Assembly (NCBI GenBank): GCA_016207275.1
Contig: JACQPY010000018.1
Span: 23,960-87,959 of the forward strand
Source: Candidatus Kerfeldbacteria bacterium
Lineage (GTDB): Bacteria > Patescibacteriota > Patescibacteriia > SBBC01
Direction: 5' to 3'
Length of the DNA stretch: 64,000 nt
This document shows, piece after piece, positions 8,237 to 56,236 of the stretch. The first letter of the stretch is position 1, and the number at the start of each line of letters is the position of its first letter. The notes below the pieces were generated by a model that did not search any database, was not told where the DNA came from, and saw only the letters and a list, made by a program, of their open reading frames with translations. The position numbers and the translations under genes were made by a program.

Positions 8237-8312
8237 GGATGACCCCGCACCTCTTCCGCTGACGGACATATCAGTCAGGAAAACAACGGATTTGGGGAAA
8301 AGGTGCGGGGTC
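8237..8312. repeat. Family-2 palindromic element overlapping the argS stop codon
   Basis: cgggatGACCCCGCACC-[~50 nt]-GGTGCGGGGTCAcatc has 11-bp inverted arms. The argS TGA is the revcomp of the tca inside the right arm. Confidence 0.6.
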
Positions 8313-9942
8313 ACATCTTCTCCGGCGCGCTGACACCCATCAGCCTGAGCGTCTTGGCCAGTACCAACTTCGTGGCCTGGACCAGCTCCAACGCTCGCGG
8401 GTTGACCGTGCCGTGGTCAATCACCCGAACCTGACCGTAGAAAACATGGAATGTCTCAGCCAGGCGCATGGTGTAGAACGGTAGTTTGTGGACGTCGTAC
8501 GACATCGCCACCTCTTCGACGAGCTCCGGCAGACGGAGTAATTGTTTAATCAGTCCGAGCGCCGCCGGTTCGCTAATTGCCGCGCCTTTTTTCGTCGGCA
8601 ATCCCTTCGTCTTCTTCACTATACTGCAAATCCGCGCGTGCGCATACTGGACGTAGTAAACCGGATTCTTTTCGCTTTTTTCTTTGGCCAAATCAAGATC
8701 GAAATCCATGTGCGTGTTGGCCGCGTGCATCAAGAAGAAAAACCGCGCCGCATCGAGGCCGACCTCGTCAATCAGCTCTTCAATGGCCACATAATTCCCG
8801 GCCCGTTTCGACATCTTTACTTCCTGACCGGCTTTTATCAACCGTACGAATTGCACAATGACGATTTCGAGTTTTTTTTCAAAGCCGAGCGCACTCATCG
8901 CCGCCTGCATACGGCCTTGATAGCCGTGATGATCCGCGCCCAGGAACAGAACTTCGCAATCGAATTTTCGCTGCCGGAATCTATTCCAGCGAAGCGCAAT
9001 ATCCGCCAGAAAGTAGGTTTTCTCTCCGTCCGACTTTATCAGCACCCGATCCTTGTCATCGCCGAACTGCGTCGTCCTGAACCACGTCGCTCCATCCTGT
9101 TTATAAATCAATCCCTTCTCAGCCAACAAGGCCAACGCTTTTTCATCCAGTCGCTGTTCATAAAGCTCGGACTCGCGAAACCAGCGATAATACCCAATGC
9201 CGAGCTTCTTGGCGGCCACCCGTTGCAACTCCGTCAGCATCATCTTTACCACCCGCCCCTTGACCCGCTGCTTCAACTCGTTCGCGCTTTTCAATTTGTA
9301 GCGTTCCAGATGAAGTTTTTTGGCAATTTCCAAAACGTACTCGCCCTGGTACAGGTCGGTCGGGTAATCCACCTTAATTCCTTTGAGTTGAAATGACCGA
9401 CGGATGACCGACTCGGTCAATTTTTCGACCTGTCCACCGATGTCGTTGACGTAGTACTCGCGGAATGGCTTGTAGCCAGCCGCCACCAGCACGTTGGCCA
9501 GAGTATCGCCGGCAAATCCGCCCCGGCCGTTGGCCAAAGTCATCGGGCCGGTGGGGTTTGCGGAGATGAATTCAAGGATCACGCGTTTGCCCTCTCCGAT
9601 CGTGCTTGCTCCGTACTCCTTTCCGGCGTCGAGGATCGCTCTCACCTGTTGCGTGAACCACGACGCTGCCACGCGAAAATTCAAGAATCCGGGCGGCACC
9701 ACCTCTATGGTAGTGATTCCAGGGACCGTGCCCAGCGCCACCTTCAACTTATCGGCAATCCGCATTGGCCCATCTTTGACCACCGGTGCCAATTGCATCG
9801 CCAGGTTGGTGCTGTAGTCACCAAATTTTGGATCGCTGGGCGTCTCCACTCGAACAACCGGCGGCTGCTGCTTGCACTCTTCAAAGAGGTCAGCGGCCGT
9901 CTGCGTCAGCTTGGCGCGGAGGATTTGCGTCATGGTCATCAT
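8311..9942 (-). CDS. argS: Arginine--tRNA ligase
   Basis: 543 aa with a HIGH-like region and KMSKRAGN, which is the ArgRS architecture. Confidence 0.95.
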   Translation of the reverse strand: MMTMTQILRAKLTQTAADLFEECKQQPPVVRVETPSDPKFGDYSTNLAMQLAPVVKDGPMRIADKLKVALGTVPGITTIEVVPPGFLNFRVAASWFTQQVRAILDAGKEYGASTIGEGKRVILEFISANPTGPMTLANGRGGFAGDTLANVLVAAGYKPFREYYVNDIGGQVEKLTESVIRRSFQLKGIKVDYPTDLYQGEYVLEIAKKLHLERYKLKSANELKQRVKGRVVKMMLTELQRVAAKKLGIGYYRWFRESELYEQRLDEKALALLAEKGLIYKQDGATWFRTTQFGDDKDRVLIKSDGEKTYFLADIALRWNRFRQRKFDCEVLFLGADHHGYQGRMQAAMSALGFEKKLEIVIVQFVRLIKAGQEVKMSKRAGNYVAIEELIDEVGLDAARFFFLMHAANTHMDFDLDLAKEKSEKNPVYYVQYAHARICSIVKKTKGLPTKKGAAISEPAALGLIKQLLRLPELVEEVAMSYDVHKLPFYTMRLAETFHVFYGQVRVIDHGTVNPRALELVQATKLVLAKTLRLMGVSAPEKM

Positions 9943-10073
9943 AGCAACGTCAGTATACCGAATCGAACAGACAAACTAAAGCCGCGCGGCGGCAAATTTT
10001 CGAAGAAAAAGGTGGGGGTCAAGAGATGAAGTCCGGGAAATTCTCTCGGCCCCCTACCTTCTGACGAGCTCAG

Positions 10074-10538
10074 TTACTCGGTGCTGCACCATCCCCCGCC
10101 GGTTGGCTGCGCCTTCTGGGATCCACTTCGCGGCACGTGGTTACCCATCTTCTGGTCCCAATTCTGGAGAACATTGATGACCCGTGACATGGTCTCCCGA
10201 ACGAGCAGCGGCTGCTGACCCCAGGTCAGCATGATTCTCCGGTAGAGGGCGTGCTTATCAGCGCTGATGCGGCCGCGCTCCATCGCCCTCCTCAGCAACT
10301 GCCGACGCTGCTCACGTTCGCTTGCAGACAGACCGGTCTGATCTTCCGCTTCTTCGGGCGCCGGTTCGACGGTGAGAAGCGCGTACCGCTGCAGCAGTCG
10401 GGTGAAAAGCGACAAGTGATCCTGCGGCTTCGACTCAACGAACCAACCCTCCATGACGCTTCCTCCGCAGCGCTCCTGCCCGCACGCAATTGTTCGGGCA
10501 TGAGCCTGAGGAAGAGGGTGTACTAACGAACAAAACAC
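10074..10538 (-). CDS. Hypothetical protein (true start likely the internal MEGWFVES)
   Basis: An ORF with no recognisable motifs. The long N-terminal extension overlaps noncoding-looking sequence. Confidence 0.3.
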   Translation of the reverse strand: MFCSLVHPLPQAHARTIACGQERCGGSVMEGWFVESKPQDHLSLFTRLLQRYALLTVEPAPEEAEDQTGLSASEREQRRQLLRRAMERGRISADKHALYRRIMLTWGQQPLLVRETMSRVINVLQNWDQKMGNHVPRSGSQKAQPTGGGWCSTE

Positions 10539-10761
10539 CCGCCTCGAGCGGGGGTAGTGAACTGCCGGTGAAACTATTCGCTCTTAATTCGTAGTTATTC
10601 GCAGCGCGCAGCGGTCCCGTTTGAGGGGCTTGAAAAGCCTGTAAACCACCAGCGATACTGCGATTGATTCATGATGAAACCATCATACACCAACCAATAA
10701 TCCTGTCAAATTGAAAGCGGCCAGAGGATCCGAAGATCATGGCCGCTGTCTATTTGAGCGA

Positions 10762-11007
10762 TTAATGCTCGTAGCAATCCCCTGCAGAGATGACCATGGC
10801 CCAAGTCTCTCCACTTTCGAACTGCTGAAGACATTTTTCCTGCATCCAACGAAGTAGACTCGACTTTTCGCGTTCGAACTCTTCGCGGGATCCGAAGAAC
10901 CATGCCTCGTACCAATCAGCAAGAAACGCTTCCTGGATTGCGACGGCATTTTGCTGCCCAATGATAGCTCGGATCGGCTCGATCTGTGCTAACTCAGTAA
11001 TGTGCAT
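10762..11007 (-). CDS. Hypothetical small protein (81 aa, start MHITELAQ)
   Basis: The internal ATG is preceded by GGAGGA, so the longer ORF-track start is unlikely. No known domain was found. Confidence 0.4.
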   Translation of the reverse strand: MHITELAQIEPIRAIIGQQNAVAIQEAFLADWYEAWFFGSREEFEREKSSLLRWMQEKCLQQFESGETWAMVISAGDCYEH

Positions 11008-11122
11008 GACTCCTCCTCGTAATGCATTGAGCGACGCATGAACGATGCGGAAGTAGGACGCATTTAATAACGAACAAACCCCTCCCGCGGGAAGGGTCGT
11101 CATACATGACCAGTTACGACGC

Positions 11123-11437
11123 TTACCGCGAAAGGCGTGGGTACGCAGTATGATGGCGCAGGCGCGCAAGCATGAGCCGGTAGCCGCCCATGCCTTTCTC
11201 AAGCCACCATGAAATCCGGGCAATAGTCCGGGAACTCAAGCCAATGTGGTTTTCAATTGCCGTATACGGTGCGCCAGCATTGAGCATCCGCGCGGCCTGC
11301 CACCGCTTTCCGAACTCGATGAGCTCGTCCTCGGTCAGGAGATCGCGCAAAAACTTCCGGGCTTCCAGCGGTGTTTTCAAACGCAGAATGGCCACGAAAA
11401 GCGCCTTTGTTTGCGGATTGTTCCAGGAATTACGCAT
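11123..11437 (-). CDS. TrpR-like (YerC/YecD family) DNA-binding protein
   Basis: LLTEDELIEFGKRWQAARML...YTAIENHIGLSSRTIARI is the Trp-repressor-like fold signature. Confidence 0.55.
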   Translation of the reverse strand: MRNSWNNPQTKALFVAILRLKTPLEARKFLRDLLTEDELIEFGKRWQAARMLNAGAPYTAIENHIGLSSRTIARISWWLEKGMGGYRLMLARLRHHTAYPRLSR

Positions 11438-11532
11438 AGGAAATACTTTACTACAGTAAAGTATACCAATGACGGGATCCCGTCAAGGGATACTTTTCCA
11501 CATGGTCTAAAAACCAAAAAACAAACAAAAAC

Positions 11533-12028: not shown

Positions 12029-12109
12029 GCCTTGACATTCATCTGCTACTCGTCCACACTACCCCTCGCTCGGCCTTCCCCCGCTCTGACCACTTGGTGG
12101 TCGGAGCGG

Positions 12110-12523
12110 GGGGATGCTCAAATGTTGATGCAACCTTGACAAGCTACCATTGCACGGCGTAGCGCCGGAACCTACGTAAAAATTCCGGAAATGATAAGTG
12201 CCAAGACACTGATCAGCAAGCTAAAGACGCTGAAGGATAACTTCTCCGTCCCACAGTTTGCCCCGTCGTTCGCCTAACCCCGAATTAATTCGGGGCCGAA
12301 CGGCCATCCGTCTGGCCGATGCCGATAAGCCAGAGCCGGGTGTAATATCTTTCGGCTGGCCAACATTGTGCTCCACGATGTTGGTAAGAACTCGGAGCTA
12401 GTGACGTCGGCGTCTGGTCTGCCTCTAAGCAGGCGTCACGAACAACCCTGAGGTGGACGAACCGTGTGGACTGTGGTAGAGTGTTGGTTGCAGACGCGGG
12501 CGCACGACCCGCCATCTCCACCA
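12110..12523 (+). ncRNA. ssrA: Candidate tmRNA (ssrA), about 414 nt
   Basis: - It lies immediately downstream of smpB.
- The 5' GGGGATG pairs with the 3' CATCTCC, including a G3:U70 wobble, followed by ACCA.
- A T-arm-like GCGGG-cgcacga-CCCGC abuts the 3' acceptor strand.
- A helix-2-like pairing forms between TGCAACC (~12130) and GGTTGCA (~12487).
- An internal frame ends ...PQFAPSFA-TAA (12275-12277), followed by a perfect hairpin ccccgaattaattcgggg. Confidence 0.7.
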
Positions 12524-12699: not shown

Positions 12700-12981
12700 A
12701 TGCACTACGTCTACCTTCTTGAAGATCAAGTTGATCGCGGCTGGTACATCGGTTACTCAACCAAGCCGGTCCCGCGACTTGATCAACACCGCTCCGGTCT
12801 TGTATATTCAACACGATTGAAGCAGGCGCTGCGCATCATCTACGTCGAGGGTTACCTCAACAAATTCGATGCCCTCGGCCGGGAACGTTTTCTCAAGAGT
12901 GGAGCTGGCCGACGATTCCTTAGAAAGCAACTTAAACACCACCTGGAAGACCAAAACAAAACACCGCTAACTTACCCCTAA
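12700..12981 (+). CDS. GIY-YIG nuclease family small protein
   Basis: 93 aa. MHYVYLLEDQVDRGWYIGYSTKPVPRLDQHRSG is the GIY-YIG signature. Confidence 0.7.
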   Translation: MHYVYLLEDQVDRGWYIGYSTKPVPRLDQHRSGLVYSTRLKQALRIIYVEGYLNKFDALGRERFLKSGAGRRFLRKQLKHHLEDQNKTPLTYP

Positions 12982-13862: not shown

Positions 13863-14210
13863 ATGCGCGTCAAACGCGGCATCATCCACAAAAAACACGT
13901 CAAGAACATCCTCAAACATGCTAAAGGCTACCGTTGGCGTCGAAAAACTTCGGTTAAGCTCGCGAAGGTCGCGGTCACCCACGCCGGCTGGAACGCCTAC
14001 AAACACCGCCGAACCAAAAAGCGCGATTTCCGGCGGCTCTGGCAGATCCGGATCAACGCCGGCGCGCGACAGAATGGCATTACCTACTCTCGGCTAATAC
14101 CGTTGCTCAAAGCCAAGAAGATCGAGCTCAACCGAAAGGTTTTAGCCGAACTGGCGGCCAAACACCCTCAGGTCTTTGCCGAGGTCGTCAAGGTCGCGCA
14201 GGCAAAGTGA
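13863..14210 (+). CDS. rplT: 50S ribosomal protein L20
   Basis: MRVKRGIIHKKHVKNILKHAKGYRWRRK...RKVLAELAAKHPQVF matches L20. Confidence 0.95.
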   Translation: MRVKRGIIHKKHVKNILKHAKGYRWRRKTSVKLAKVAVTHAGWNAYKHRRTKKRDFRRLWQIRINAGARQNGITYSRLIPLLKAKKIELNRKVLAELAAKHPQVFAEVVKVAQAK

Positions 14211-14214
14211 AGCT

Positions 14215-14320
14215 CCACGGCCTCACGGCCGTGGTTTCTCTCGATCCGTGGTTCCGTGGAGCGGAACCCCGCACCGTCCCGACCGCACAAGCGCGTCGGG
14301 ACTGGTGCGTGGGTAAAACA
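14215..14320. repeat. Family-2 element copy A (with a conserved upstream hairpin block) between the convergent rplT and PRTase genes
   Basis: ccacggcc..ggccgtgg and ggttccg-tggag-cggaacc are followed by AACCCCGCACC-gtcccgac...gtcgggac-TGGTGCGTGGGTAA. This is near-identical in layout to copy C at 25521-25608. Confidence 0.6.
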
Positions 14321-14392
14321 ACTTCATTGCAGGCAGGTTGAAGCCGGTCACATCCATGTGGACCGGCTCCTTAGTGCTGACGAACTTCCCTC

Positions 14393-14980
14393 CTAGGCGA
14401 CGACCGCCACCGCTTGCATTTTCCTGACGCGAGCTTGCATCACCCGTTCCCAGAGCTCCCACGGATAGAGCCGATAGCGTGGATCGATCTCCGCCGCGAA
14501 GATGTCCGGCTTGCGCTCCGGGAAGATGTTGCATTCGGACTTGAAGTGCAGCGTGATGGTGGTGAGGCTCCGAGGGCTGGCGTCCATGATGCGGTGCTGA
14601 GCCCGGACGTTGCTCTTGCCGGTCTCCCACACTTCATCGAACAGCCCGACATTCTTGTCGCGGAGATCCTCGTCCGAAGGAAAGTAGACGATCTTCGGCG
14701 AGGGTGAATCCCGCTCCGACAACCCTGTCTCCTCGCGCCTCAAGCGGGCATAGGCCACCTTGTTGTGGTCGAGCACGCGCTCAACGAGTGAGACGAAGTG
14801 GGTGGCGCCGTGTTTGATCGCCACGATCGTGTCGAACGGACCGAGTTTCTCGATCCGCGGCACAAGCTGGAGCACGACCTCCTGCGCCAGCAAGCCGACT
14901 TCGGACCATGACACGTAAACCTCGTTCGGCTCAATCAGACTGCGCGGATCAATGCCGTCTACCACCTGCAATTCATTCAT
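14393..14980 (-). CDS. Phosphoribosyltransferase-domain protein (start at the internal MNELQVV preceded by GGGAGG)
   Basis: VGLFDEVWETGKS resembles the PRTase PRPP-binding loop. The longer ORF-track N-terminus is S/R-rich junk that overlaps element A. Confidence 0.45.
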   Translation of the reverse strand: MNELQVVDGIDPRSLIEPNEVYVSWSEVGLLAQEVVLQLVPRIEKLGPFDTIVAIKHGATHFVSLVERVLDHNKVAYARLRREETGLSERDSPSPKIVYFPSDEDLRDKNVGLFDEVWETGKSNVRAQHRIMDASPRSLTTITLHFKSECNIFPERKPDIFAAEIDPRYRLYPWELWERVMQARVRKMQAVAVVA

Positions 14981-15209
14981 ACCGCCTCCCTGGGGTTCAG
15001 TGGTCGAAAATGCAGACGAGCGATGCTGCGTAGTGCAGCGTTTCGGTTTTGGTTTCCCTCCTGTGGTGGACCAATAAAACACGCGAGGGCGCGGTTGCGC
15101 CCCCAAGGCTTCACTGTCTTCGTTTCTGGTTCCGCTTGATCGGCGGGATCTCCATAGGTATTTAGTAGCATGGCCGCGCTGATCTGACAACCAGGGAGTT
15201 TTCCCCAGG

Positions 15210-15596
15210 CTAGAGCTTACTGCTCGGCGCAGTCATCCGCCGTCGAATGGCCAGGCCGCTCAGCACACCGACCAGGTCAATCGCCGCGTCAACCGGCGCC
15301 CCGTGCCGGCCAGGGACGAAGGTTTGGTGCCATTCATCAATCCCGGCGTAGCCAGCGCTCAGGACCGCGGCCAAGACCACTGCCCGCGCCCGCGGCAGGC
15401 CGCTAACCTCGAACGCCCGAAACATCAGCCCGCCGAGAATGGCATACTCAGCCAGGTGAGCAATCTTCCGTAGGATTATATCCCACAGCGGCAGCAACCC
15501 TGAACGGAGGTCAGGAATCGACGACCAGATAAAAATCACCGTCATCCACCCGCTGACGTAGACCCAGGCCCACAGGCGCTGTTGAGACAAAGTCAT
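15210..15596 (-). CDS. VanZ-like membrane protein
   Basis: 128 aa with 3-4 TM helices and AHLAEYAILGGLMFRAF typical of the VanZ family. Confidence 0.6.
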   Translation of the reverse strand: MTLSQQRLWAWVYVSGWMTVIFIWSSIPDLRSGLLPLWDIILRKIAHLAEYAILGGLMFRAFEVSGLPRARAVVLAAVLSAGYAGIDEWHQTFVPGRHGAPVDAAIDLVGVLSGLAIRRRMTAPSSKL

Positions 15597-15680
15597 ACTT
15601 CATCGGTACCATAGCGGTCAACCCTCGACAAGCCCAGCCATGTTTGCTAAAATCGTCCTGCTCAAGAACGTGCGCGGAGC

Positions 15681-15702
15681 GGACCGTTAGTGTAGTGGTT
15701 AA
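15681..15702 (+). other. Displaced 5' fragment of a tRNA-Asp-like gene (acceptor strand plus D-arm)
   Basis: GGACCGT-TA-GTGT-AGTGGTTAA parallels the start of the intact tRNA-Asp but stops at a family-2 element. The matching 3' half is at ~15917-15958. Confidence 0.45.
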
Positions 15703-15742
15703 CCCCGCACCAATTCTCGCTTCGCTCGAATGGTACGGGGCA
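15703..15742. repeat. Family-2 element (CCCCGCACC-aattctcgcttcgctcgaa-TGGTACGGGG)
   Basis: Inverted arms enclose a TTCG-containing core. The same subfamily is found at cobA (56188-56236) and prfB (44119-44165). Confidence 0.6.
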
Positions 15743-15772
15743 AGCACGCCTCCCTTGCAAAGCGCCCAGAGC

Positions 15773-15847
15773 GGACCCATAGTGTAGCCCGGTTAACACG
15801 TCTCCCTGTCACGGAGAAGATCAGGGGTTCAAATCCCCTTGGGTCCG
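15773..15847 (+). tRNA. tRNA-Asp (GTC)
   Basis: Cloverleaf: acceptor GGACCCA/TGGGTCC, U8A9, D-stem GTGT/ACAC, anticodon stem TCTCC/GGAGA with loop CTGTCAC, variable AGATC, T-arm AGGGG-TTCAAAT-CCCCT, discriminator G. Confidence 0.8.
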
Positions 15848-15869
15848 CTCTGAGCGCAGCCTCCCTGCC

Positions 15870-15919
15870 TGCCCCGCACTTGTGACCCTGAGCCAGTCGA
15901 AGGGGAACATAGTGCGGGG
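15870..15919. repeat. Family-2 element with a nested gaccc-hairpin core
   Basis: CCCCGCACT-tgtgaccctgagccagtcgaaggggaacat-AGTGCGGGG. The inner part matches the family-3 H2 motif. Confidence 0.55.
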
Positions 15920-15958
15920 TCACGGAGGAGATCACGGGTTCGACTCCCGTACGGTCCG
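15917..15958 (+). other. tRNA-Asp-like 3' half (anticodon loop 3' side, variable loop, T-arm, acceptor 3' strand)
   Basis: TCAC-GGAGG-AGATC-ACGGG-TTCGACT-CCCGT-ACGGTCC-G. Its acceptor strand complements GGACCGT at 15681-15687. Confidence 0.45.
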
Positions 15959-16022
15959 CTCCGCGCATGCGTCTCCCTGCTGCGCCCCGTCTACGCAAAC
16001 GTAGTGAGCGTTGTACGGGGCC

Positions 16023-16062
16023 TGCCCCGCACTTGACTCGAAGAGGCATAGTGCGGGGTCAC
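16023..16062. repeat. Family-2 element (short-core variant)
   Basis: CCCCGCACT-tgactcgaagaggcat-AGTGCGGGG followed by tcacggag. Confidence 0.5.
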
Positions 16063-16326
16063 GGAGCCCAGTACCACGTAGGGTGCTGGGCAAGAAGACC
16101 TGTCCCGTAAATGAGCGAAGCGAATTATACGGGATCAGGGGTTTCCCGCCACAATAATTTCAAAATTCTAAGGAAGGCGGGATCCCCGCCTGCCGAAGTC
16201 TCGCACGGCGGGCAGGCCGCCGAACTTGTCCCGTCGAATAACGGGATGGCGGGACAAATCCGGTCGGATCCGCCAAGAAAACTTAGTATCGAGCAATCCG
16301 ACAACACCGACGGTTGAATAAAGTTT

Positions 16327-17280
16327 ATGAGGACAAAGAAGACGGCAGTCGTCACGGGTGGAGCAGGATTCATCGGCCACCATCTTTGCGCAAGACTTCT
16401 GGACAATGGGTACCGAGTTGTTTGTCTGGATAACTTCTCTAGCGGCAGGCCAGAGAATGTTCGACCGTTTCGTGGTCACTCACGATTTACTTTTTATCGT
16501 CGTGACATTACCCGGCCACTTCGTTTACGTGAAGATGTCGATGAAATATACAACCTGGCATCACCGGCATCCCCTGTCGATTACCAGCATCGGCCAATGG
16601 ACACGGTGCAGGCTAATACCCTTGGTGTCTATCGGGTGGTCGCGTTAGCTCTACAAAAACGTGCCAAGCTGTTGCAGGCTTCGACCTCGGAGATCTACGG
16701 GGATCCCCTGGAACACCCGCAACCCGAGACGTACCACGGTAATGTTAATCACCTTGGTGTGCGCGGGTGTTATGAAGAAGGAAAACGCATTGCGGAAACG
16801 ATTTTTTCAATCCACCATCAGACCTACGGCCTTCGGTTACAAATCGCCAGGATATTCAATACCTACGGTCCCGGGATGCGCGAAAACGACGGGCGCGTCA
16901 TTCCGGAATTCATTTACGCCGCTCTTCGGAACCAGCCGCTGACGGTCTACGTCGGATCGCAGACGCGCTCTTTCTGTTATGTTGATGACCTGATTAAGGG
17001 CCTTATCAGATTACAGAGAGTTCCAAAATACATTGATCCGGTAAACATCGGCAATCCTAAAGAAATATCCATGCTACAACTTGCTCGTCGGGTTATTCAA
17101 ATGACCAATTCGAAAAGCCGGATCAGAATTTTGCCTAGTCAAACAGACGACCCGCGCCAACGCAAACCGGATGTTCGTAAGGCATCTCATTTCCTGAAAT
17201 GGTCCCCGGACACCAATTTTGACCTTGGCCTTCGCCGAACCATAGACGATTTTCGAAATAGATTCACTGCGGAATCTTGA
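16327..17280 (+). CDS. NAD-dependent epimerase/dehydratase, UDP-glucuronate decarboxylase (UXS)-like
   Basis: VVTGGAGFIGHHL ... YNLASPASP ... ASTSEIYGDP is the extended SDR / UXS pattern. The gene has lower GC than its surroundings. Confidence 0.85.
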   Translation: MRTKKTAVVTGGAGFIGHHLCARLLDNGYRVVCLDNFSSGRPENVRPFRGHSRFTFYRRDITRPLRLREDVDEIYNLASPASPVDYQHRPMDTVQANTLGVYRVVALALQKRAKLLQASTSEIYGDPLEHPQPETYHGNVNHLGVRGCYEEGKRIAETIFSIHHQTYGLRLQIARIFNTYGPGMRENDGRVIPEFIYAALRNQPLTVYVGSQTRSFCYVDDLIKGLIRLQRVPKYIDPVNIGNPKEISMLQLARRVIQMTNSKSRIRILPSQTDDPRQRKPDVRKASHFLKWSPDTNFDLGLRRTIDDFRNRFTAES

Positions 17281-22150: not shown

Positions 22151-23071
22151 TCAAAAGTTAAACGTAGTATTCTCCACGACACCGGCTCCCGCGGCTTCCT
22201 CAACCTGCCTAACCACCGCGACTTCAAGCGCTCGAAAGTCGTAGTCGTGCCGTTCGGTTTGGAAAAATCCGTCACCTTCGGCCATGGAACCTCAAAAGGT
22301 CCGGCCGCCATCATTGCGGCCAGTCACGAAGTCGAACTCTACGACGAACAGTTCAAAAACGAACCGTACAAACGTTACGGCATTGCCACCCTTAAACCAT
22401 TCCCCATACCCCACTCCCATCGTCGTGCACTAGAACTTCTCACCGATCTAACAGCCCGGTTGCTTCGACGTAAAAAATTCCCCATCATCCTCGGCGGCGA
22501 ACACTCGCTGACTGGCGGTTCAGTCGCTGGTATGGCCAAGGTTTTTGGCCGACGCGGTTTTAATATTCTCCACTTTGACGCACACACTGACCTACGACCG
22601 TCGTTTCAAGGCAACAAGCTAAGCCACGCCTCAGCCCTGCACCTGGCTATCCCCTACTTCCACCGTTTGGTTCAAATCGGCATCCGCAATACCTCCACCG
22701 AGGAACAGCCGATCATTCGCCGCTTGACCAAAGCCCGCCGTTTACAAATTTTCACCGCTGAGGACATTCTGCGTGCTAACAACACCGCCTACTTAACCAA
22801 AGCTATGGACTTTCTGCGAGACCGGCCAGTCTGGTTAACCTTTGACGTTGATGTCTTTGATCCGGCCATCATCGGTTCGAGCACTGGCACGCCCGAACCC
22901 GGCGGTTTATGGTGGTACGGCGTGCTTGACGCCCTCCAGGCAGCCACCAAACAACTCGACATTATCGGCGCCGAATTCGTCGAACTTTTGCCAAAACCGG
23001 GCCAGCAAGCGCCGGATTTTATCGTGGCCAAGCTCATCTACCAATTCCTGAATTTCAGGTTCGCGGCTTGA
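22103..23071 (+). CDS. speB: Agmatinase / arginase-family ureohydrolase (start uncertain: 22046, 22103 or 22127)
   Basis: GGEHSLT, HFDAHTDL and DVDVFDPA..TGTPEPGG are the Mn-binding motifs. The N-terminal ~15 codons are encoded by the family-3 repeat. Confidence 0.8.
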   Translation: MSIRQRLGMTLSEVEGSKVKRSILHDTGSRGFLNLPNHRDFKRSKVVVVPFGLEKSVTFGHGTSKGPAAIIAASHEVELYDEQFKNEPYKRYGIATLKPFPIPHSHRRALELLTDLTARLLRRKKFPIILGGEHSLTGGSVAGMAKVFGRRGFNILHFDAHTDLRPSFQGNKLSHASALHLAIPYFHRLVQIGIRNTSTEEQPIIRRLTKARRLQIFTAEDILRANNTAYLTKAMDFLRDRPVWLTFDVDVFDPAIIGSSTGTPEPGGLWWYGVLDALQAATKQLDIIGAEFVELLPKPGQQAPDFIVAKLIYQFLNFRFAA

Positions 23072-23664
23072 TGCGGAAACCGGTTGACGATTTACGAAAG
23101 GACATCGTTTTCTCCGCGCACTTACGCCAACACGAATTCGCGTTCCATTCGACCTGGGGACTCTTCAGTCCGGAGGCGATTGATCCAGGATCTAAACTCC
23201 TGATTGATCACCTCGATGTGCGCCCCAACGATACCGCAATTGATCTCGGATGCGGATACGGGGCAATCGGCATCGCCGTGGCGCGTGAAGCGTCGGCGGG
23301 ATACGTTCACCTTGTTGATAAAGACTTCATCGCGGTTGAATACGCCAAAAAGAACATTGCCGTAAACGGCATCGCCAACGCCACCGCCTACCTAAGCAAT
23401 GGATTCAACGCCATTCCCAAGGATCAGCGGTTCGATCTCATTCTTTCAAATCTTCCAGCCAAGGTCGGTCGAGAACTCTACGATATATTCTTCCTTGATG
23501 CCAAAAACTTCCTCAAACCTGGCGGCCGGATCTACGTCGTCACCATTGCCGGCCTCAAGGAATTCATCAAGAAAAACTTCCACGAAATATTCGGGAATTA
23601 CGACAAAGTAAAACAAAATGGCACGCACGTCGTCGCCCGAGCAGTGAAGCGCTCCCCGAGCTGA
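23068..23664 (+). CDS. Class I SAM-dependent methyltransferase (RsmC/RlmG-like small MTase domain)
   Basis: DLGCGYGAIG is SAM motif I, and NLPAKVG is an NPP-like motif. Confidence 0.65.
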   Translation: MMRKPVDDLRKDIVFSAHLRQHEFAFHSTWGLFSPEAIDPGSKLLIDHLDVRPNDTAIDLGCGYGAIGIAVAREASAGYVHLVDKDFIAVEYAKKNIAVNGIANATAYLSNGFNAIPKDQRFDLILSNLPAKVGRELYDIFFLDAKNFLKPGGRIYVVTIAGLKEFIKKNFHEIFGNYDKVKQNGTHVVARAVKRSPS

Positions 23665-23696
23665 CGCTCGGGGTATCAGTCCTTTCGGGCTTTCGG

Positions 23697-23750
23697 AGCG
23701 CGGAACCCCGCACCCGTCCCGCCAGCGGGCGGGACTGGTGCGTGGGTCAA
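23697..23750. repeat. Family-2 element copy B
   Basis: AACCCCGCACC-cgtcccgcc-agcg-ggcgggac-TGGTGCGTGGGTCA. It marks the left edge of an AT-rich islet. Confidence 0.6.
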
Positions 23751-24263
23751 ACGATCATAATCAGCGTTTGGCCTGTCTCGTCAGGAAACGCAGCTGGCGG
23801 GCCAAGTTCATCTATAAGTTTTTTTGAATTTTTGATTCGGTCGCTGACAGAAATATGTTATTCGCACGGACGGGCTGACCTCCAGTTTTCAGTCATAAAA
23901 TTCCTTAAAATATCAAACTCGCTGCAGGTGAGTCCGGCGTCCTTCCCCCAACCTACTCTGCTACCACCTCCGCCCTCTCCATCAACCACGCCAAAGTCAT
24001 AATTTTTGAGCAATCACCTAAATGTAGCTCTACTTACTAAGTCGAATATTTCTGCATTGTTTCTAAAGGCCTCTAGCAGTTTAAGGTTGATTGTCCCTTC
24101 GGGATAATTAGTTTTTTCTTGAATCATTATCAGCTCAACCGTGGCCATAAGAAAGTCGCTGGAATATTCTCCATATTTATTCAAGTCTTCATACTCTTTT
24201 AGGTTGACTTTGGTGAAGAACTGGAATTCAGGCGGATATTTTTTCGAGGGTTGAATTTTCTGG

Positions 24264-24452
24264 TCAAGTTATTTCCTCGGTCAAATCTTCTGATAGGTCT
24301 TCCAATAACCACTTACGTCCACATTGACAACTTCGCATATAAGAATTTTGGTATTGCCCGCCAATTAACTTCAATACTACTTCTCTTCCGCATCCGCAGG
24401 TTATTGACTTGATTTGATTGTATGAATCACGCATTCGATCAACACTTTTCAA
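24264..24452 (-). CDS. Small zinc-ribbon protein (possibly the 5' part of a frameshifted gene continuing to ~24010)
   Basis: CGCG...CQCG gives two CxxC pairs. It lies in the AT-rich islet, and an ATG-less ORF follows in another frame. Confidence 0.3.
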   Translation of the reverse strand: MKSVDRMRDSYNQIKSITCGCGREVVLKLIGGQYQNSYMRSCQCGRKWLLEDLSEDLTEEIT

Positions 24453-24456
24453 TTAA

Positions 24457-25203
24457 TTATAACCGGCTACCATAATTGATATTGTTTTCCAGGCTCACAA
24501 TTTCGAAACTTTTAGCGTGCCATTCGGACAATCGCTCGTAGTCTATGAACTTTATTCTTGACTTGATTGGTACGAAAGCATTGAGTAATACTTTGGCCTC
24601 GAACTCTGACTTTCGAGCGCCGTTTGCAACAATGTAAAAATTCGTATTAAAATCTTGAAGTTCGATGAACTTCAACAGTGAGTTTTTAATATCAGTAGAA
24701 TGCTCAACCTCGAAGAAATACGCTGGCATTTTTCGCACATTAAACCAGCTGACGTCAACTGTTCGCGCCTTACGGATAATATGATCATAGCCGAATCGGT
24801 AAAAATCCCGTATGGTGGCAATCTCGCCAAGTTTCCTGTTTATAAATTTTCTATTTTTATCTTGACTCGGAACGAAAGTATAATATTTTTTCAAGTTGCC
24901 GATTTCAACCAATAAACCTTGGTAGTAGCTATGGTTAAATAACTCATGTTCTTTTTGAGAGACAAGTTCGGTTGGTAGTATCTCAAGTGGTATCCTCGTC
25001 CGATATGACCGCAGCGCCCAAAGACCGGGTTTAATTTTAAAGAAAAACCTCTTATCCTGGACGATGCGACGGATACTCGCGAAAGGAGTTTTTGTTTTCC
25101 ACTCAACGCCAGAAACTTTCAAAACTTCCTGATTGAGGTGGCCGAGTGTCGCGAACCCGCCGCTCCGTTCCATTACCTTAATTACTGCTTCGTGTTGTTT
25201 CAT
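24457..25203 (-). CDS. Hypothetical protein, possibly a restriction-endonuclease-like partner of the adjacent methyltransferase remnant
   Basis: 248 aa and AT-rich. Only the location beside the MTase fragment suggests the role. A possible D..EVEH acidic cluster is present but no family was recognised. Confidence 0.35.
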   Translation of the reverse strand: MKQHEAVIKVMERSGGFATLGHLNQEVLKVSGVEWKTKTPFASIRRIVQDKRFFFKIKPGLWALRSYRTRIPLEILPTELVSQKEHELFNHSYYQGLLVEIGNLKKYYTFVPSQDKNRKFINRKLGEIATIRDFYRFGYDHIIRKARTVDVSWFNVRKMPAYFFEVEHSTDIKNSLLKFIELQDFNTNFYIVANGARKSEFEAKVLLNAFVPIKSRIKFIDYERLSEWHAKSFEIVSLENNINYGSRL

Positions 25204-25246
25204 ATTTGAAAATTGACAATAACATCAACACCCTTACTCTTTTGTC

Positions 25247-25435
25247 TCATTCGCTCTTATTGACGCTTACCTGCCGACCGGCATGAACAGTAAACCCGCC
25301 GTTTGAAAGATGGTACGGCGGGTCAGCAAAAATCATGTCCACCGAGTTCTCTTTGAGAAGCGGAAGTATCTTTAAACAACCACCACGATACAAAGTAAAC
25401 CGCTTGTCCTCATCTTGATAGCTGGGTCTTATCAT
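25247..25435 (-). pseudogene. N-terminal fragment of a DNA (N6-adenine/N4-cytosine) methyltransferase
   Basis: SVDMIFADPPY is the catalytic motif IV (DPPY), found in a 62-codon ORF that then terminates. Confidence 0.6.
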
Positions 25436-25520
25436 TTTGCGCTTGTATGACTCCCTGTTGATATCTTACCCGAAGAAAAACCGAATGTCAATTTATGCGA
25501 AATTGTGAAGCTCCATGTCC

Positions 25521-25608
25521 CCACGGCCGTGGTTTCTCTCGATACGTGGTTCCGTGGAGCGAAACCCCGCATCCGCCCCGAGCAATGTCGAGGGGCTGGT
25601 GCGTGGGT
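25521..25608. repeat. Family-2 element copy C (with the conserved upstream hairpin block)
   Basis: ccacggccgtgg...ggttccgtggagcgaaACCCCGCATC-cgccccgag..tcgaggggc-TGGTGCGTGGGTAA. It marks the right edge of the AT-rich islet. Confidence 0.6.
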
Positions 25609-38259: not shown

Positions 38260-38643
38260 CTATTCCAGCAGTCTTTTCCTAAATGCTGATAATTGATTTC
38301 CAAGTTCTGCCGCGCTCGACAGTACTTCATCGCGTTCTTGGTGGGTGAGGCAGCCACAATCAACAGCCACATCACAACAGGCAACAACTTCATTCAAAGA
38401 GGCTAGTGCATAATTAAGAAAGAGCGCAAAATCCTTGTCCGAACTTCGATTCGATCCTTCGGCAATGTTGAGGACGATTGAGTTTGCTGCCCGCAGCAAC
38501 TGCGCCGTAAGAATGTATCTCTCACCATCCGGAAATGATCGCGCGTAACGACGAACGTGACTGACAAATTGTCGTGCTAACTGGTAGACGGTGAATTTTC
38601 TAAATCGAAACTTTCTATCGATATCAAATACCATTCTGGTCAA
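38260..38643 (-). CDS. Four-helix-bundle protein (23S rRNA intervening-sequence protein family)
   Basis: YILTAQLLRAANSIVLNIAEG ... LASLNEV is diagnostic for this family. Confidence 0.75.
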   Translation of the reverse strand: MTRMVFDIDRKFRFRKFTVYQLARQFVSHVRRYARSFPDGERYILTAQLLRAANSIVLNIAEGSNRSSDKDFALFLNYALASLNEVVACCDVAVDCGCLTHQERDEVLSSAAELGNQLSAFRKRLLE

Positions 38644-43999: not shown

Positions 44000-44045
44000 A
44001 GTCCCGCAACGTAACGAGCGGCCGCGAGTTACTGGTGCGGGGAAA
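44000..44045. repeat. Family-2 element between prfB and its first 5'-end duplicate
   Basis: GTCCCGCAAC-gtaacgagcggccgcgagttac-TGGTGCGGGGAAA. Confidence 0.55.
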
Positions 44046-44105
44046 CCCCCGTGCTTCGGAAACTTTCTTCTCAAGAATTGTCAGTCGGTCTTTTAAATCT
44101 TTCAT
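44046..44105 (-). other. Duplicate of the prfB 5' end (decoy start 2)
   Basis: Minus strand reads ATGAAAGATTTAAAAGACCGACTGACAATTCTTGAGAAGAAAGTTTCCGAAGCACGGGGG, translating MKDLKDRLTILEKKVSEARGF. This is RF2-N-terminus-like and runs into the element. Confidence 0.55.
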
Positions 44106-44118
44106 GGTACTAGCAATG

Positions 44119-44165
44119 TAACCCCGCACCGGAACGAACGCAAGTGAGTGACTGGTGCGCGGGCA
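44119..44165. repeat. Family-2 element between prfB duplicates 2 and 3
   Basis: AACCCCGCACC-ggaacgaacgcaagtgagtgac-TGGTGCGCGGG. Confidence 0.55.
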
Positions 44166-48781: not shown

Positions 48782-49192
48782 ATGCCGCCACATTTTTTAT
48801 ACAACAACCCGTCGTTTAAGCGACGACGGCAAAAGCTGCGAAACAAGTCAACACCGGCTGAACGAAAACTTTGGGGACATCTTCGAAAAAGTCAGTTGTT
48901 GGGCTTAAAGTTCCAACGGCAGTATGGGATCGGCCCGTACGTGCTTGATTTCTTTTGTCCGGAATTACGACTGGCAATTGAAGTTGACGGCGACTCACAT
49001 TTCACGCCCGACGCCCGCGCCTACGATCAGCAACGTCAACAATTCATCGAGAACGAGGATATCGCCGTGGTCAGGTTTCTCAATACCGACATTCACGAGA
49101 ATATGGATGGCGTGCTAACAAAGCTAGGCGAGGTAGTGATGTCTCTTACCACCCCTTGTTCCCCTCCTACGCTAGGAGGGGAGACTTGCTAA
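48782..49192 (+). CDS. DUF559 endonuclease-domain protein (copy 2); its C-terminal tail is encoded by repeat R6
   Basis: LWGHLRKSQLLGLKFQRQYGIGPYVLDFFCPELRLAIEVDGDSH matches DUF559. The tail ..TTPCSPPTLGGETC lies in the hairpin. Confidence 0.75.
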   Translation: MPPHFLYNNPSFKRRRQKLRNKSTPAERKLWGHLRKSQLLGLKFQRQYGIGPYVLDFFCPELRLAIEVDGDSHFTPDARAYDQQRQQFIENEDIAVVRFLNTDIHENMDGVLTKLGEVVMSLTTPCSPPTLGGETC

Positions 49193-49250
49193 AAGCCGTT
49201 AGCATATCCTCCCTCCTAGGGTAGGAGGGAGACAGAGGGTGGTACCAAAA
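49160..49250. repeat. Family-1 composite repeat R6 at the 3' end of DUF559 gene 2
   Basis: tcccctccta-cgc-taggagggga, then GACTTGCTAAAAGCC, then tcctccctcctagggtaggagggagacagagggtgg. Confidence 0.65.
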
Positions 49251-52915: not shown

Positions 52916-52971
52916 AGTAAGTTATCCCCAAATATACTACTACACAGTGTAGTAGACCAACCCCGACCTCG

Positions 52972-53883: not shown

Positions 53884-53893
53884 CGTCGTGCAC

Positions 53894-54442: not shown

Positions 54443-54445
54443 GCG

Positions 54446-54829
54446 CTACTGGGCATAGACGAACCGCCACTCAATCGTTTCAGTCGACTTCGTCACGTAA
54501 TCCTTCGCGCCGACTTGTCCTTCCTGACCATTGGCGTACCACAGCCAATAGGCGGTCGACGAACCAACCCGACCATCAATGCCCTGAACGAAGCCGTTGC
54601 TCTCGACGACCTCGTGATTCTCCTGCAGCAACTCGAGGACGGTCTTACCATCCTGACCTTGGTACGAAATAGTCGTCGGCAGCGGCGCTTCGACGTTCGC
54701 ATTCGGCGTCGCCGCCGGGTTGATGTTCTGGTTGGCGACGGGAGTGGTTTGTTGGCTGGTGTACCACCACGCTCCGACGCCGACCAGTGCCACGACAATA
54801 ACGACAATGACAATTGACTGTTTTTTCAT
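54446..54829 (-). CDS. DUF4430-domain secreted protein (transcobalamin-like fold)
   Basis: An N-terminal TM/signal is followed by TVLELLQENHEVVESNGFVQGIDG ... YWLWYANG. Confidence 0.5.
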   Translation of the reverse strand: MKKQSIVIVVIVVALVGVGAWWYTSQQTTPVANQNINPAATPNANVEAPLPTTISYQGQDGKTVLELLQENHEVVESNGFVQGIDGRVGSSTAYWLWYANGQEGQVGAKDYVTKSTETIEWRFVYAQ

Positions 54830-55039
54830 GGTCGATCCCTCGTTCTATATAATAAGCTGCAGGAACAATTTAGGCAACGTATGCTTGTCGGTCTAAAGAC
54901 CCCCTTTCTCATTAAAGTGGTTGATGACAAAAACACCTCGTTCCGAGAAGCGAGGCAATTAGTAACTAAACGCGACCTCATCCCGGAGGATTTGTCTTTA
55001 CCCGCGCACCATATTGGGTGTGGGGAAGGCGTCCGACTT

Positions 55040-55165
55040 CCTTCCCCTCTCCTCTCCGAGGAGAGGGCTGGGGTGAGGTTACGGTTGCGGGACAGTTCCG
55101 GAATTGATTTCCCTCCCCTTTCAGGTCCTCTCCTTTGCATTCTGCAAAGGGGAGGGGTCAGGAGT
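55040..55165. repeat. Family-1 (CTCTCC variant) palindromic repeat R7
   Basis: cctctc-cgag-gagagg followed by gctggggtgagg, then a cctttgca-ttc-tgcaaagg hairpin and ggggaggggtcaggagtgggg. Confidence 0.6.
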
Positions 55166-55374
55166 GGGGTCGCACCGGATTGCCTACATTCGTATTTTCA
55201 ATGTGTGGTTGACGACGAACTAACTACTGATCCCTAACCCCCAAACCCTATCTTGTCACCCAGTACATGAAGGAAAAGACGAACACCGCCGCGGCCATGA
55301 AGAAAATCAACCACAAAAACTGCAGGAGTGTCGACTTTTTTTCGAGTGGATTATGAAACATTGTTTTTGGTTAA

Positions 55375-55600
55375 ACGTTACGAGTCAAATGTTCACTTCG
55401 ATCCTTCGACTTTGCTCATCCTTCGACAATGCTCAGGATGAGTCCCGCCGAATGGGCGACCTTTATGCACGTATCCACAGGATAGCACATCGAATGACTT
55501 GTGACTAGCGACCCGTCACATGTCATCCCTCGACGCTGCTCGGGATGACCCCGAGCGTAGTCGAAGGGTCACAGATCAAATGTCACATGTTCTCAATAAT
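55375..55600. repeat. Family-3 composite element (two catcc-hairpins, one gaccc-hairpin, flanking GTCAAATGT motifs)
   Basis: catccttcgacaatgctcaggatg, catccctcgacgctgctcgggatg and gaccccgagcgtagtcgaagggtc, followed by cacagatcaaatgtcacatg. Confidence 0.55.
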
Positions 55601-56168
55601 CAATCCCCTTGCTGGCAATAATCCCTTGGTAGTATGGATGCTTAACCATCTTCATTTCGGTCACCAAGTCACAACGCTTTAATACAGCTGGGTAGGCGCT
55701 GTGGCCGGTCATGGCCACGTGGACCAGTTTTGCTTTCGGATGCTTAGCTCGTTCGTTGAGCAACTTCGCAATCGCCGACACGGGAAAGAGTTTCTGCTCC
55801 GAGCAAGCAATGATCTCATCGAGTATCACGAGCTTGTACTTTCCTGAAAACAGCAATTGCTTTGCTTCGGCCAACGCGCTGGCTGCAGCTTGCCGGTGCT
55901 GCCGGCGAGATTTTCGGTCGCCTAAAATGCCCACAAACCCTTTGCCGCGGACGCGCACATCAACCCCTAACTTCTTCAACGTCACCCGCTCGCCTGACGG
56001 CCATTGCGCTGACTTGTAAAACTGAAAAAACAGCACGGGCCAGCCGTAGCCCGCAGCTCGCGTGGCCAAACCGACAGCCGCCGTGGTTTTTCCTTTACCA
56101 TCGCCGACGTAGGCAATGGTTAGACCGCGATCAATGGCGCGAAATTGCTTTACGGCTGATCTCTTCAT
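55593..56168 (-). CDS. Cob(I)yrinic acid a,c-diamide / cob(I)alamin adenosyltransferase (BtuR/CobA/CobO family)
   Basis: IAYVGDGKGKTTAAVGLATRAAGYGW is the P-loop region. The start is taken at MKRSAVKQF. The longer ORF-track N-terminus is rejected. Confidence 0.75.
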   Translation of the reverse strand: MKRSAVKQFRAIDRGLTIAYVGDGKGKTTAAVGLATRAAGYGWPVLFFQFYKSAQWPSGERVTLKKLGVDVRVRGKGFVGILGDRKSRRQHRQAAASALAEAKQLLFSGKYKLVILDEIIACSEQKLFPVSAIAKLLNERAKHPKAKLVHVAMTGHSAYPAVLKRCDLVTEMKMVKHPYYQGIIASKGIDY

Positions 56169-56187
56169 AGAGTACTGCGCCGACGCA

Positions 56188-56236
56188 TGCCCCGTACCGG
56201 ACTCCGAGCGAAGTCGAGGAGGACTGGTGCGGGGTA
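56188..56236. repeat. Family-2 element immediately upstream of the adenosyltransferase gene
   Basis: CCCCGTACC-ggactccgagcgaagtcgaggaggac-TGGTGCGGGGTAGG, with a TTCG core like the tRNA-Asp and prfB copies. Confidence 0.55.

Follow-up and report, generated by a model that had tools for sequence, protein, structure and literature searches.

Short GC-rich palindromes with similar outer arms recur along a stretch of 64,000 nucleotides from the genome of a Candidatus Kerfeldbacteria bacterium (contig JACQPY010000018.1, positions 23,960 to 87,959; we refer to this whole stretch as the window), and the question that they raise is what kind of element they represent. A preliminary description made from the sequence named them family 2 and offered three candidate roles: a mobile element similar to the repetitive extragenic palindromic (REP) sequences or the miniature inverted-repeat transposable elements (MITEs), a recombination site for a recombinase acting in trans, and a structured terminator or non-coding RNA (ncRNA). 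The first of these roles fits best, as judged from empty orthologous sites, the presence of multiple copies and the existence of in-frame and nested placements. We consider it probable, if well short of certain, that family 2 consists of copies or modules of a non-autonomous, structure-dependent and target-specific mobile DNA element of ultra-small uncultured bacteria. The role as a recombination site is possible, because of the conserved target, the lack of target duplication, two conserved bulges and a variable tip. The window has a GC content of ca. 55%, and its genes for tmRNA, SmpB, IF3, L20, ArgRS and RF1, together with the phosphoribosyltransferase encoded beside rplT, which is 100% identical to a Candidatus Kerfeldbacteria protein from a metagenome-assembled genome, identify the host as a bacterium of the Candidate Phyla Radiation (CPR, Patescibacteria).

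Family 2 hairpins and the composite element

There are 8 occurrences of the motif CCCCGCACC in the window, where dinucleotide shuffles predict 0.96 (an enrichment of about 8-fold), and a paired-arm pattern (both arms, at most one mismatch per arm, 6–70 nt apart) gave 12 matches; the shuffles averaged 2.05 and never exceeded 6. Each of the ten positions listed in the preliminary description holds a copy, a single hairpin that has CCCCGCAC(C)/(G)GTGCGGGG as its closing arms, and folding as single-stranded DNA gave z values from -2.2 to -7.3 relative to shuffles across the ten copies. At least 11 copies had been claimed; ten are verified, four weak relatives can be added to them (at 12079, 16067, 40695 and 55002), and the variant said to be nested inside the family 3 elements was not found. 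The arms had been called perfectly inverted, but most copies have an arm mismatch or a one-base bulge (e.g., GGTGCG-T-GGG, CCCCGTACC or CCCGCAAC), and the literal consensus AACCCCGCACC...GGTGCGGGG has no matching copy in the window.

The alignment of matches from different genomes showed that the family 2 hairpin (H2) is the 3' module of a composite unit of ca. 100–130 nt made of two adjacent GC-rich hairpins. Its layout is G^TGAAGC - H1 (TCCACGGCTTTACAGCCGTGG...CCGTGGA) - GCGR - AACCCCGCACC - variable hairpin - CTGGTGCG(Y)GGG^TAAA, where H1 is the upstream hairpin and ^ marks a boundary or junction here and below. The closing arms are GCTCCACGG/CCGTGGAGC in H1 and ACCCCGCACC/GGTGCG(Y)GGGT in H2. 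The 3' arm of H2 contains two conserved single-base bulges and the tip of the hairpin is variable. In the window, H1 is carried by copies a, b and c. This explains the block of ca. 45 nt previously noticed upstream of the copies then labeled A and C: the block is real and corresponds to the H1 module, and copy B has H1 too. The copies found in the window are the following (E values are those of a covariance model, z values those of folding).

14208–14313, plus strand: copy a, full composite (H2 at 14264–14313), E = 2.1e-15, z of H2 = -7.3
23645–23746, plus strand: copy b, full composite (H2 at 23703–23746), E = 2.8e-13, z = -6.0
25506–25607, plus strand: copy c, full composite (H2 at 25562–25607), E = 3.1e-10
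44120–44163, plus strand: copy d, H2 only, E = 8.9e-5, z = -2.2
56190–56234, plus strand: copy e, H2 only, CCCCGTACC...CTGGTGCGGGG, E = 0.034, z = -2.6
44002–44042, plus strand: copy f, H2 only, TCCCGCAAC...CTGGTGCGGGG, E = 0.0035
8240–8313, unstranded: copy g, long hairpin, absent from the covariance model matches, z = -7.2
15701–15740, minus strand: copy h, in the D-loop of an outer, disrupted tRNA-Asp 5' fragment, E = 0.034 (better on the minus strand)
15872–15919, unstranded: copy i, in the anticodon loop of a tRNA-Asp 3' fragment, E = 3.6, z = -4.3
16025–16058, unstranded: copy j, in a third tRNA-Asp fragment, with the arms of copy i and at the same anticodon-loop position, E = 0.12, z = -6.2
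15773–15848, plus strand: intact tRNA-Asp (GUC), given for context and outside the element (ARAGORN; Rfam 69 bits)

The covariance model, a check suggested in the preliminary description, was built from copies of other genomes and then run on the window. The support was strong for copies a, b, c, d and f, borderline for e and h and weak for i and j, and copy g was not detected by this model of the cross-phylum family. Since the scores range from clear to none, family 2 is real but heterogeneous.

Copy a consists, in this order, of TGAAGC, hairpin H1, GCGG, AACCCCGCACC, the inner hairpin and CTGGTGCGTGGG, and the H1 of copy c is almost identical to its own. Copy b overlaps the 3' end of a methyltransferase gene (23068–23664), while copy c is antisense to the 3' end of a 4-alpha-glucanotransferase gene. 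Copy d, with a bulged 3' arm (CTGGTGCG-C-GGG), is intergenic, with minus-strand genes on either side, and lies upstream of a pseudo-copy of the RF1 gene 5' end; copy f is located between this pseudo-copy (44105–44043, minus strand) and the start of the functional RF1 gene (43869). Copy e separates the minus-strand genes for ribonucleotide reductase and corrinoid adenosyltransferase. Copy g has arms of 18 nt (TGACCCCGCACCTCTTCC/GGAAAAGGTGCGGGGTCA), of which the outermost bases are the argS stop codon TGA, as had been observed before; after it comes another palindrome, unrelated to it, which extends to the start of a glycosyltransferase gene. The sequence of copy i is CCCTG-CCTG[...]TCACGGAGG. 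The 5' end of the tmRNA gene is overlapped by a palindrome (12073–12117) with arms of 21 nt (CCCCCGCTCTGACCAC/GTGGTCGGAGCGGGGG) similar to those of family 2.

Insertion sites and target

The clearest case of insertion is that of copy a, which separates the final codon of rplT, AAG, from the stop codon TAA, and whose own TGA now terminates rplT. Where the window reads AAG[106-nt element]TAA, the loci L005, L002 and L003 show AAG-TAA; the element is likewise absent from L098 and L099. The terminator hairpin that the relatives have after the stop codon is kept in the window as well, downstream of copy a, which also separates the convergent rplT and phosphoribosyltransferase genes, as previously described. 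At argS, L005 has ATG TAA CCT ATG without the element, and the window has ca. 130 nt of palindromes instead. Because the orthologous sites of relatives are empty, the copies are, on the basis of these comparisons, insertions relative to the related genomes.

The base before the composite was G in 44 of 50 copies, and the four bases after it were T (44/50), A (43/50), A (45/50) and A (37/50). Target duplication was found in none of the 50 (flanks compared for k = 2 to 5), and no U-tract followed the hairpin among the flanks of the composite copies. Given that the flanks at rplT are host sequence, the conserved flanks can be taken as a target preference, approximately (A/T)AAG^TAAA by alignment, and this explains the frequent location of composites at TAA stop codons, as well as in tiny operon junctions and, in frame, inside coding sequences. 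The copy found inside an open reading frame (ORF) of L042 sits in this same target (SASF^TFF).

Structural conservation and distribution across genomes

The inner hairpins had been said to differ completely between copies and always to pair. The compensatory change is real: in a set of 23 different copies, equal in length and drawn from many genomes, both sides had changed in 6 of the 7 pairs of the inner stem (25 cells), the covariation score was matched by 0 of 500 shuffles and the slid controls collapsed. A related arm type (CCCAGCACC/GGTGCTGGG) also differs from the main one by a compensatory pair. The inner hairpins are, however, recurrent types across genomes (GTCCCGC-loop-GCGGGAC, plus a conserved long type) and not unrelated sequences. 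Likewise, selection for structure rather than sequence describes the inner stem, which covaries, and does not describe the arms of H2, the sequence of which is conserved across phyla. In Uhrbacteria MGEP01 six copies have an identical H1 of 57 nt, a sign of recent copying, and in some copies other GC palindromes are repeatedly located inside the loop of the H1 inner hairpin (TTTA^C). The GC-rich sequence of the element is kept even in hosts of 35–46% GC.

The family is not specific to the source genome, a point beyond the preliminary description. An exact-pattern scan (AACCCCGCACC-N10-40-CTGGTGCGNGGG, with 22 fixed bases) over one genome per species (185,579 species) found 90 loci in 62 assemblies, against an estimated ca. 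2 chance matches. The CPR lineages with the element were Kerfeldbacteria, Uhrbacteria, Jorgensenbacteria, Berkelbacteria, Liptonbacteria, Komeilibacteria, Buchananbacteria, Doudnabacteria, Moranbacteria, Brennerbacteria, Saccharibacteria and Peribacteria. Outside CPR it was found in Omnitrophota (6 assemblies), Scalindua and other Planctomycetota, Ratteibacteria and some metagenome-assembled genomes (MAGs) labeled as Gammaproteobacteria. About 7 matches of the scan, in GC-rich genomes such as those of Streptomyces and Oscillospiraceae, form no hairpin and look like chance. Several genomes had more than one locus (10 in Uhrbacteria MGEP01, 7 in Jorgensenbacteria PCRZ01 and 4 in Omnitrophota JAZFTF01). 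The element had no match in phage records, plasmid records or IMG/VR viral contigs; in Rfam only tmRNA and tRNA were matched at gathering thresholds, with E-value searches over the copies giving noise, and a protein database search with the translated long variant gave only 3 matches, all uninformative.

An AT-rich islet and displaced gene 5' ends

The direct repeats that had been described around an AT-rich islet are copies b (left) and c (right), which bound in direct orientation 1.8 kb of 44% GC (23749–25505) with a gene for a HARE-HTH protein. In L002 both the islet and the adjacent methyltransferase gene are lacking and the arginase and glucanotransferase genes are contiguous. Direct-repeat copies also flank a gene in L032. 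At RF1, copies f and d flank the duplicated gene 5' end (44043–44105, minus strand), again as previously noted; the duplicate is identical at 33 of 63 nt and the homology is clear at the protein level (MKDLKDRLTILEKKVSEARGF vs. MNDLARRLDSLRQKIVSARGL). Similar 5' duplicates of a family-4 glycosyltransferase gene are present in L002 (14413–14507), L098 (10256–10349) and L099 (14310–14405), and the duplicates of both genes are found just upstream of the working starts, with GC palindromes in between.

The direct repeats around the islet, together with the displaced gene 5' ends, suggest that adjacent segments may be moved or replaced. With low confidence, we put forward as one joint proposal that the double hairpin is the folded single-strand substrate of an undescribed site-specific DNA insertion system common to several ultra-small phyla (CPR, Omnitrophota and others), which would use AAAG^TAAA as its insertion site, create no duplication there, accept hairpin tips of variable form and have the capacity to move neighboring gene segments or replace them.

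A related explanation, which we find rather unlikely, is that H2 is a folded single-strand recombination site like the attC of integrons, on which a structure-specific tyrosine recombinase would act. Strand exchange would take place at G^T (element junction GGG^TGAAG, target AAG^TAAA), and paired sites could mobilize the genes between them, as the direct repeats around the islet and around the gene of L032 would fit. Conserved arms with two conserved bulges and a variable terminal structure are what such a site would have, both flanks of the insertion point are conserved without target duplication, copies are found at the 3' ends of ORFs, and structure-based recognition would allow the cross-phylum conservation. 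However, RYYYAAC/GTTRRRY core sites are lacking, no gene for an integrase or for another recombinase was found in the window, the copies form no co-oriented arrays, both orientations being equally common, and copies are also found inside ORFs and tRNA loops.

Orientation and location relative to genes

In the 59 contexts that could be classified the element was in sense orientation in 20, antisense in 22, convergent in 15 and divergent in 2, i.e., its orientation is independent of the neighboring transcription. Most copies adjoin gene 3' ends. The number of G-U pairs was 47 on one strand and 41 on the other, without asymmetry, and the folding energies were equal on both strands. Copies occupy operon junctions, for example between dnaX and ybaB or between ftsW and murG. 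In other genomes (none in this window) in-frame and stop-free copies are found inside PheT (two copies), an ABC ATPase domain, a carbamoyltransferase, PriA and a Wzy-like protein. The loci are the following.

L096, 2950–5664: PheT, with two copies
L083, 2848–3657: in-frame copy
L025, 2022–3923: in-frame copy
L022, 3795–5831: in-frame copy
L042, 923–3226: in-frame copy

The copies inside these genes encode recurrent peptides, such as FTHAPVPLGGTVRGSAPRNPVRQEATAVKPWSF, QPRTELRSGAWARNDK and HSEPAHQSEARCGV, and peptides of the AQNDK/SEAKNL type are common in hypothetical proteins of MAGs. A literature search on palindromic or mobile repeats of CPR and on the recurrent peptides AQNDK and SEAKNL found no description. 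The strand that carries the element had a negative GC skew in 63 of 101 copies and, where the skew was strong, in 40 of 56 loci (with origins and termini unmapped), which suggests a possible link with the replication strand.

Orientation, G-U symmetry and the locations at operon junctions and in frame argue for a selfish element acting at the level of DNA. The same data make a structured terminator or a sense ncRNA, as had been proposed, unlikely, and they also speak against an intervening sequence that is excised. In its broadest form that proposal would be a cis-acting RNA hairpin beneficial to the host, protecting mRNA 3' ends or acting in factor-dependent or bidirectional termination like some E. 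coli REPs, and we consider it improbable. It would fit the very stable folds, the preference for gene 3' ends with avoidance of divergent promoter regions (2 of 59 contexts), the orthologous copies kept between L039 and L040, and the fact that a palindrome folds either way round. Against this, at rplT a conserved intrinsic-terminator hairpin, used by relatives without the element, is located downstream of the copy; copies occupy operon junctions and lie in frame in essential genes; the U-tract is missing; the sites of close relatives are empty; and neither the cross-phylum arm sequence nor the conserved DNA target would be explained.

The tRNA-Asp locus and GIY-YIG genes

Three of the ten copies (h, i and j) turned out to be hairpins in the D-loop and anticodon loops of tRNA-Asp gene fragments, which had not been recognized before. 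Here (15677–16290) the intact tRNA-Asp is nested between a disrupted 5' fragment (15682–15757) and 3' fragment(s), and the third fragment (15970–16290) contains at least 5 further GC palindromes in or near loops. The same nested layout is found in L020 (5043–5350) and partly in L005 (1–640, reverse), which ends inside repeated tRNA/hairpin sequence. A counterpart of copy h is located at the corresponding position of L005 and L020, one pair having changed in a compensatory manner, and L020 also has a hairpin at the position of copy i. These genomes share only ca. 70% identity in their proteins, yet the upstream leader and the hairpin of the D-loop hardly differ among them. The locus exists in these states.

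L099: plain tRNA-Asp
L098 and L005: small GIY-YIG gene inside a tRNA-Asp copy
Window and L020: nested fragments, no GIY-YIG gene

As the relatives display plain, GIY-YIG-bearing and nested states, the fragments are probably relics of invasions by endonuclease genes that later gathered hairpins.

Small GIY-YIG genes were the most recurrent neighbor across loci, almost all of them in or beside tRNA or tmRNA genes. They are free-standing, code for ca. 85–115 aa and have upstream, in most cases, a duplicated 5' part of the tRNA; one is located in the D-loop of a tRNA-Phe and two inside tRNA-Asp copies. The protein of the window is 94.5% identical to its L005 copy, where neighboring genes reach ca. 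70%. They resemble homing-endonuclease genes with tRNA genes as their targets. Those found are listed below.

Window, 12700–12972: GIY-YIG gene
L005, 84–377 and 3154–3429: two GIY-YIG genes
L098, 25–303: GIY-YIG gene
L014, L020, L029, L032, L074, L075 and L082: GIY-YIG genes

The hairpins in tRNA loops bring up a further explanation, that family 2 is an intervening sequence acting at the RNA level: the hairpins would be excised from transcripts and the ends rejoined, so that insertions in tRNA and coding sequences would be harmless. The three copies in the D-loop and anticodon loops, the conservation of the D-loop copy in three lineages with a compensatory change, and the fact that tRNA introns are known in Patescibacteria (PMC13011429) are in its favor. 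We hold it nevertheless to be very improbable. The intact tRNA-Asp makes the interrupted copies unnecessary, the outer tRNA copy of L020 lacks the T-arm, no group I intron signal was seen, and the invasion by GIY-YIG genes explains the interrupted fragments better. In addition, every in-ORF copy examined was in frame and stop-free and no gene was split by a frame-breaking copy: the split genes considered as evidence of RNA excision were discarded, because all five ORF pairs tested were separate genes.

Formation in place as an unlikely origin, and rejected candidates

It is hardly credible, in our opinion, that the hairpins are not transposed at all and originate where they stand, through templated mutation at quasi-palindromes or through breakage and repair of the tip, with a conserved host protein (e.g., a DNA-uptake or nucleoid protein) favoring arms like CCCCGCACC. 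A hypervariable tip over a copy otherwise identical within one genome, palindromes nested in hairpin loops and the ComEC gene present in the window would agree with such an origin. Contrary to it, whole units of 100–130 nt with the same ends are found at unrelated sites and are missing from orthologous ones, and identical H1 modules of 57 nt cannot arise independently.

Several other candidates were rejected. A DNA uptake sequence (ComEC, with a GTGCGG core) does not agree with the insertion of whole 100-nt units. Archaeal bulge-helix-bulge tRNA introns were discarded because the host is bacterial (tmRNA, SmpB, L20 and IF3) and the arms pair without 3-nt bulges. The tRNA group I introns of Patescibacteria have an RF00028-like core in the anticodon loop after U35 (PMC13011429); here there was no RF00028 match up to E = 10 in 14100–16400, and the inserts are hairpins of 34–48 nt. 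A translated cassette between TGA and TAA was dismissed because the spacing is not a multiple of three (copy a) and lengths vary, and the TGA of the element as a regular in-frame stop because this holds for only 15 of 50 copies.

Proposed movement of the element and the search for an enzyme

For the mobile element that we favor, we infer the following way of moving. The element would be recognized as a folded single strand through its hairpins and bulged bases, and a sequence- and structure-specific enzyme would move it in trans without staggered cuts, the candidates being a single-strand transposase of the HUH/Y1 type or a site-specific recombinase. Only lineages that retain the hairpins would keep copying, and this would account for the covariation. 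Resident copies would be mostly neutral passengers, tolerated at gene ends or when in frame and stop-free.

A number of observations weigh against this. No transposase or recombinase was found in the 64-kb window by tblastn and by Pfam on ORFs; this includes the RAYT (REP-associated tyrosine transposase, PF01797), TnpB and integrase genes that had been proposed as partners of the repeats, with no RAYT found by either method and none of the window ORFs scanned matching an integrase or another recombinase family of Pfam. In the other genomes no enzyme gene was consistently located beside the copies. The AAAG^TAAA target is missing at the H2-only copies (d, e, f and g) and at those in the tRNA fragments (h, i and j), which may have an origin different from that of the composites. 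The replication-strand bias is only moderate. In Uhrbacteria MGEP01 the inner hairpins differ among otherwise identical copies, which simple copy-and-paste does not explain. Finally, conservation of the orthologous copies in L039 and L040 exceeds that of the sequence around them and the D-loop copy h is kept in three lineages, which hints at some constraint or function at the level of the host.

Y1 transposase genes (PF01797) are present in related CPR contigs, L002 (6850–7440 and 15640–16370) and L068 (420–1190), flanked by GTAG hairpins of their own in the classic REP-RAYT arrangement, unlike family 2. The loop motif ATTCAT of GTAG-type hairpins is also found in the conserved long inner variant of H2. 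RAYT was rejected as the linked enzyme because Y1 genes are near copies at two loci only and have their own, different repeats, and GIY-YIG because its genes go with tRNA genes rather than with the element.

Comparison with known systems

The element resembles REP sequences, MITEs and the Rickettsia palindromic elements in behavior but falls under the definition of none of them. Like the REP sequences, including bacterial interspersed mosaic elements (BIMEs) with RAYT and REP doublets forming hairpins (REPINs), it is a short, GC-rich, imperfect palindrome in multiple copies, mostly at gene 3' ends. Composites of different hairpin modules and a mismatch or bulge in the hairpin are also common to both, and Y1 genes with GTAG hairpins do occur in the related CPR contigs mentioned above. 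On the other hand, the 5' GTAG is absent here, H2 being preceded by GCGGAA, GCGAAA, TGTAA, etc., and the composite starting with TGAAGC; inverted pairs are not seen, only single hairpins or H1 plus H2, which are unlike each other; and no RAYT gene is linked to family 2. Copies are also found inside ORFs and the family crosses phyla, whereas REP families are normally confined to a species or genus.

The Rickettsia palindromic elements are reportedly of ca. 100–150 nt, belong to one genus and are found in intergenic regions, RNA genes and in frame in essential protein genes. The element described here shares the size of ca. 100–150 nt, the palindromic repeats, the classes of location, including in-frame copies in protein genes (of other genomes), and the lack of recognizable terminal inverted repeats, target duplications or transposase. 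The sequences are unrelated, and the ~AAAG^TAAA target, the two hairpins and the cross-phylum range set it apart. As regards MITEs (Correia/NEMIS), it is also non-autonomous and multi-copy, with presence or absence of insertions at orthologous sites and overlap with gene ends. Its ends (TGAAGC.../...GCGYGGG) are not inverted copies of each other, hence there are no terminal inverted repeats, and there is no target-site duplication (0/50) nor known parent insertion sequence.

The palindrome-associated transposable elements (PATEs) derived from IS200/IS605 also have a subterminal hairpin at each end, no inverted repeats or duplication, a short specific insertion sequence, a bulged hairpin base (a known recognition feature of TnpA) and some strand bias. 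The G at position -1 in 44 of 50 copies fits this model, but the 3' flank TAAA is equally conserved and IS200/IS605 does not require it. Moreover, the two hairpins are dissimilar, the strand bias is weak and no TnpA or TnpB gene with matching ends was found. Similarity with integron attC sites lies in the conserved outer stems, extrahelical bases, variable tip, location directly after ORFs and an inner part conserved in structure more than in sequence. The differences are the absence of the R''/R' cores (GCGGAAC precedes the arm, no GTT follows it and the 3' end is GGG^TAAA), of arrays and of an integrase, and the presence of both orientations and of copies inside genes.

The mobile GC clusters and double-hairpin elements of fungal and algal mitochondria are GC-rich and spread over the compact genomes of distant species. 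Like the element, they have intergenic, RNA-gene and coding insertions and are found beside endonuclease genes and partial gene duplications; the host compartment is another and there is no sequence relation.

Other features of the window

An isoleucyl-tRNA synthetase-like protein of 1187 aa (2209–5772, minus strand) has a histidine-phosphatase domain (PF00300, residues 515–678) embedded between segments of the catalytic domain. Its homologue in L002 aligns at similar spacing, so that the insert may be common to both. Two genes of the DUF559 family (Vsr-like endonuclease), at 5870–6313 and 48782–49192, each adjoin a long palindrome of their own of the CCCCTCC...GGAGGGG type (5858–5916 and 49147–49244, respectively), and may be another pairing of endonuclease gene and palindrome. 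At 38260–38643 there is a gene whose product belongs to the 23S rRNA intervening-sequence proteins (PF05635), a family with the fold of accessory proteins of diversity-generating retroelements.

Significance

The genomes of CPR bacteria are tiny and tightly packed and have few recognized mobile elements. A nearly identical repeat of 100 nt in Kerfeldbacteria, Saccharibacteria, Peribacteria, Omnitrophota and Scalindua implies recent flow of DNA between distant lineages, and a repeat that crosses phyla implies a conserved enzyme or host factor that recognizes it. There are practical effects as well. The element supplies stop codons, adds peptides to essential proteins (PheT and PriA) and clutters tRNA loci, so that annotators should mask it, and it probably breaks metagenome assemblies, as in the case of L005, which ends in the tRNA/hairpin repeat. 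The mobilizing enzyme, should it be identified, could prove to be a compact tool for insertion, guided by structure together with sequence.

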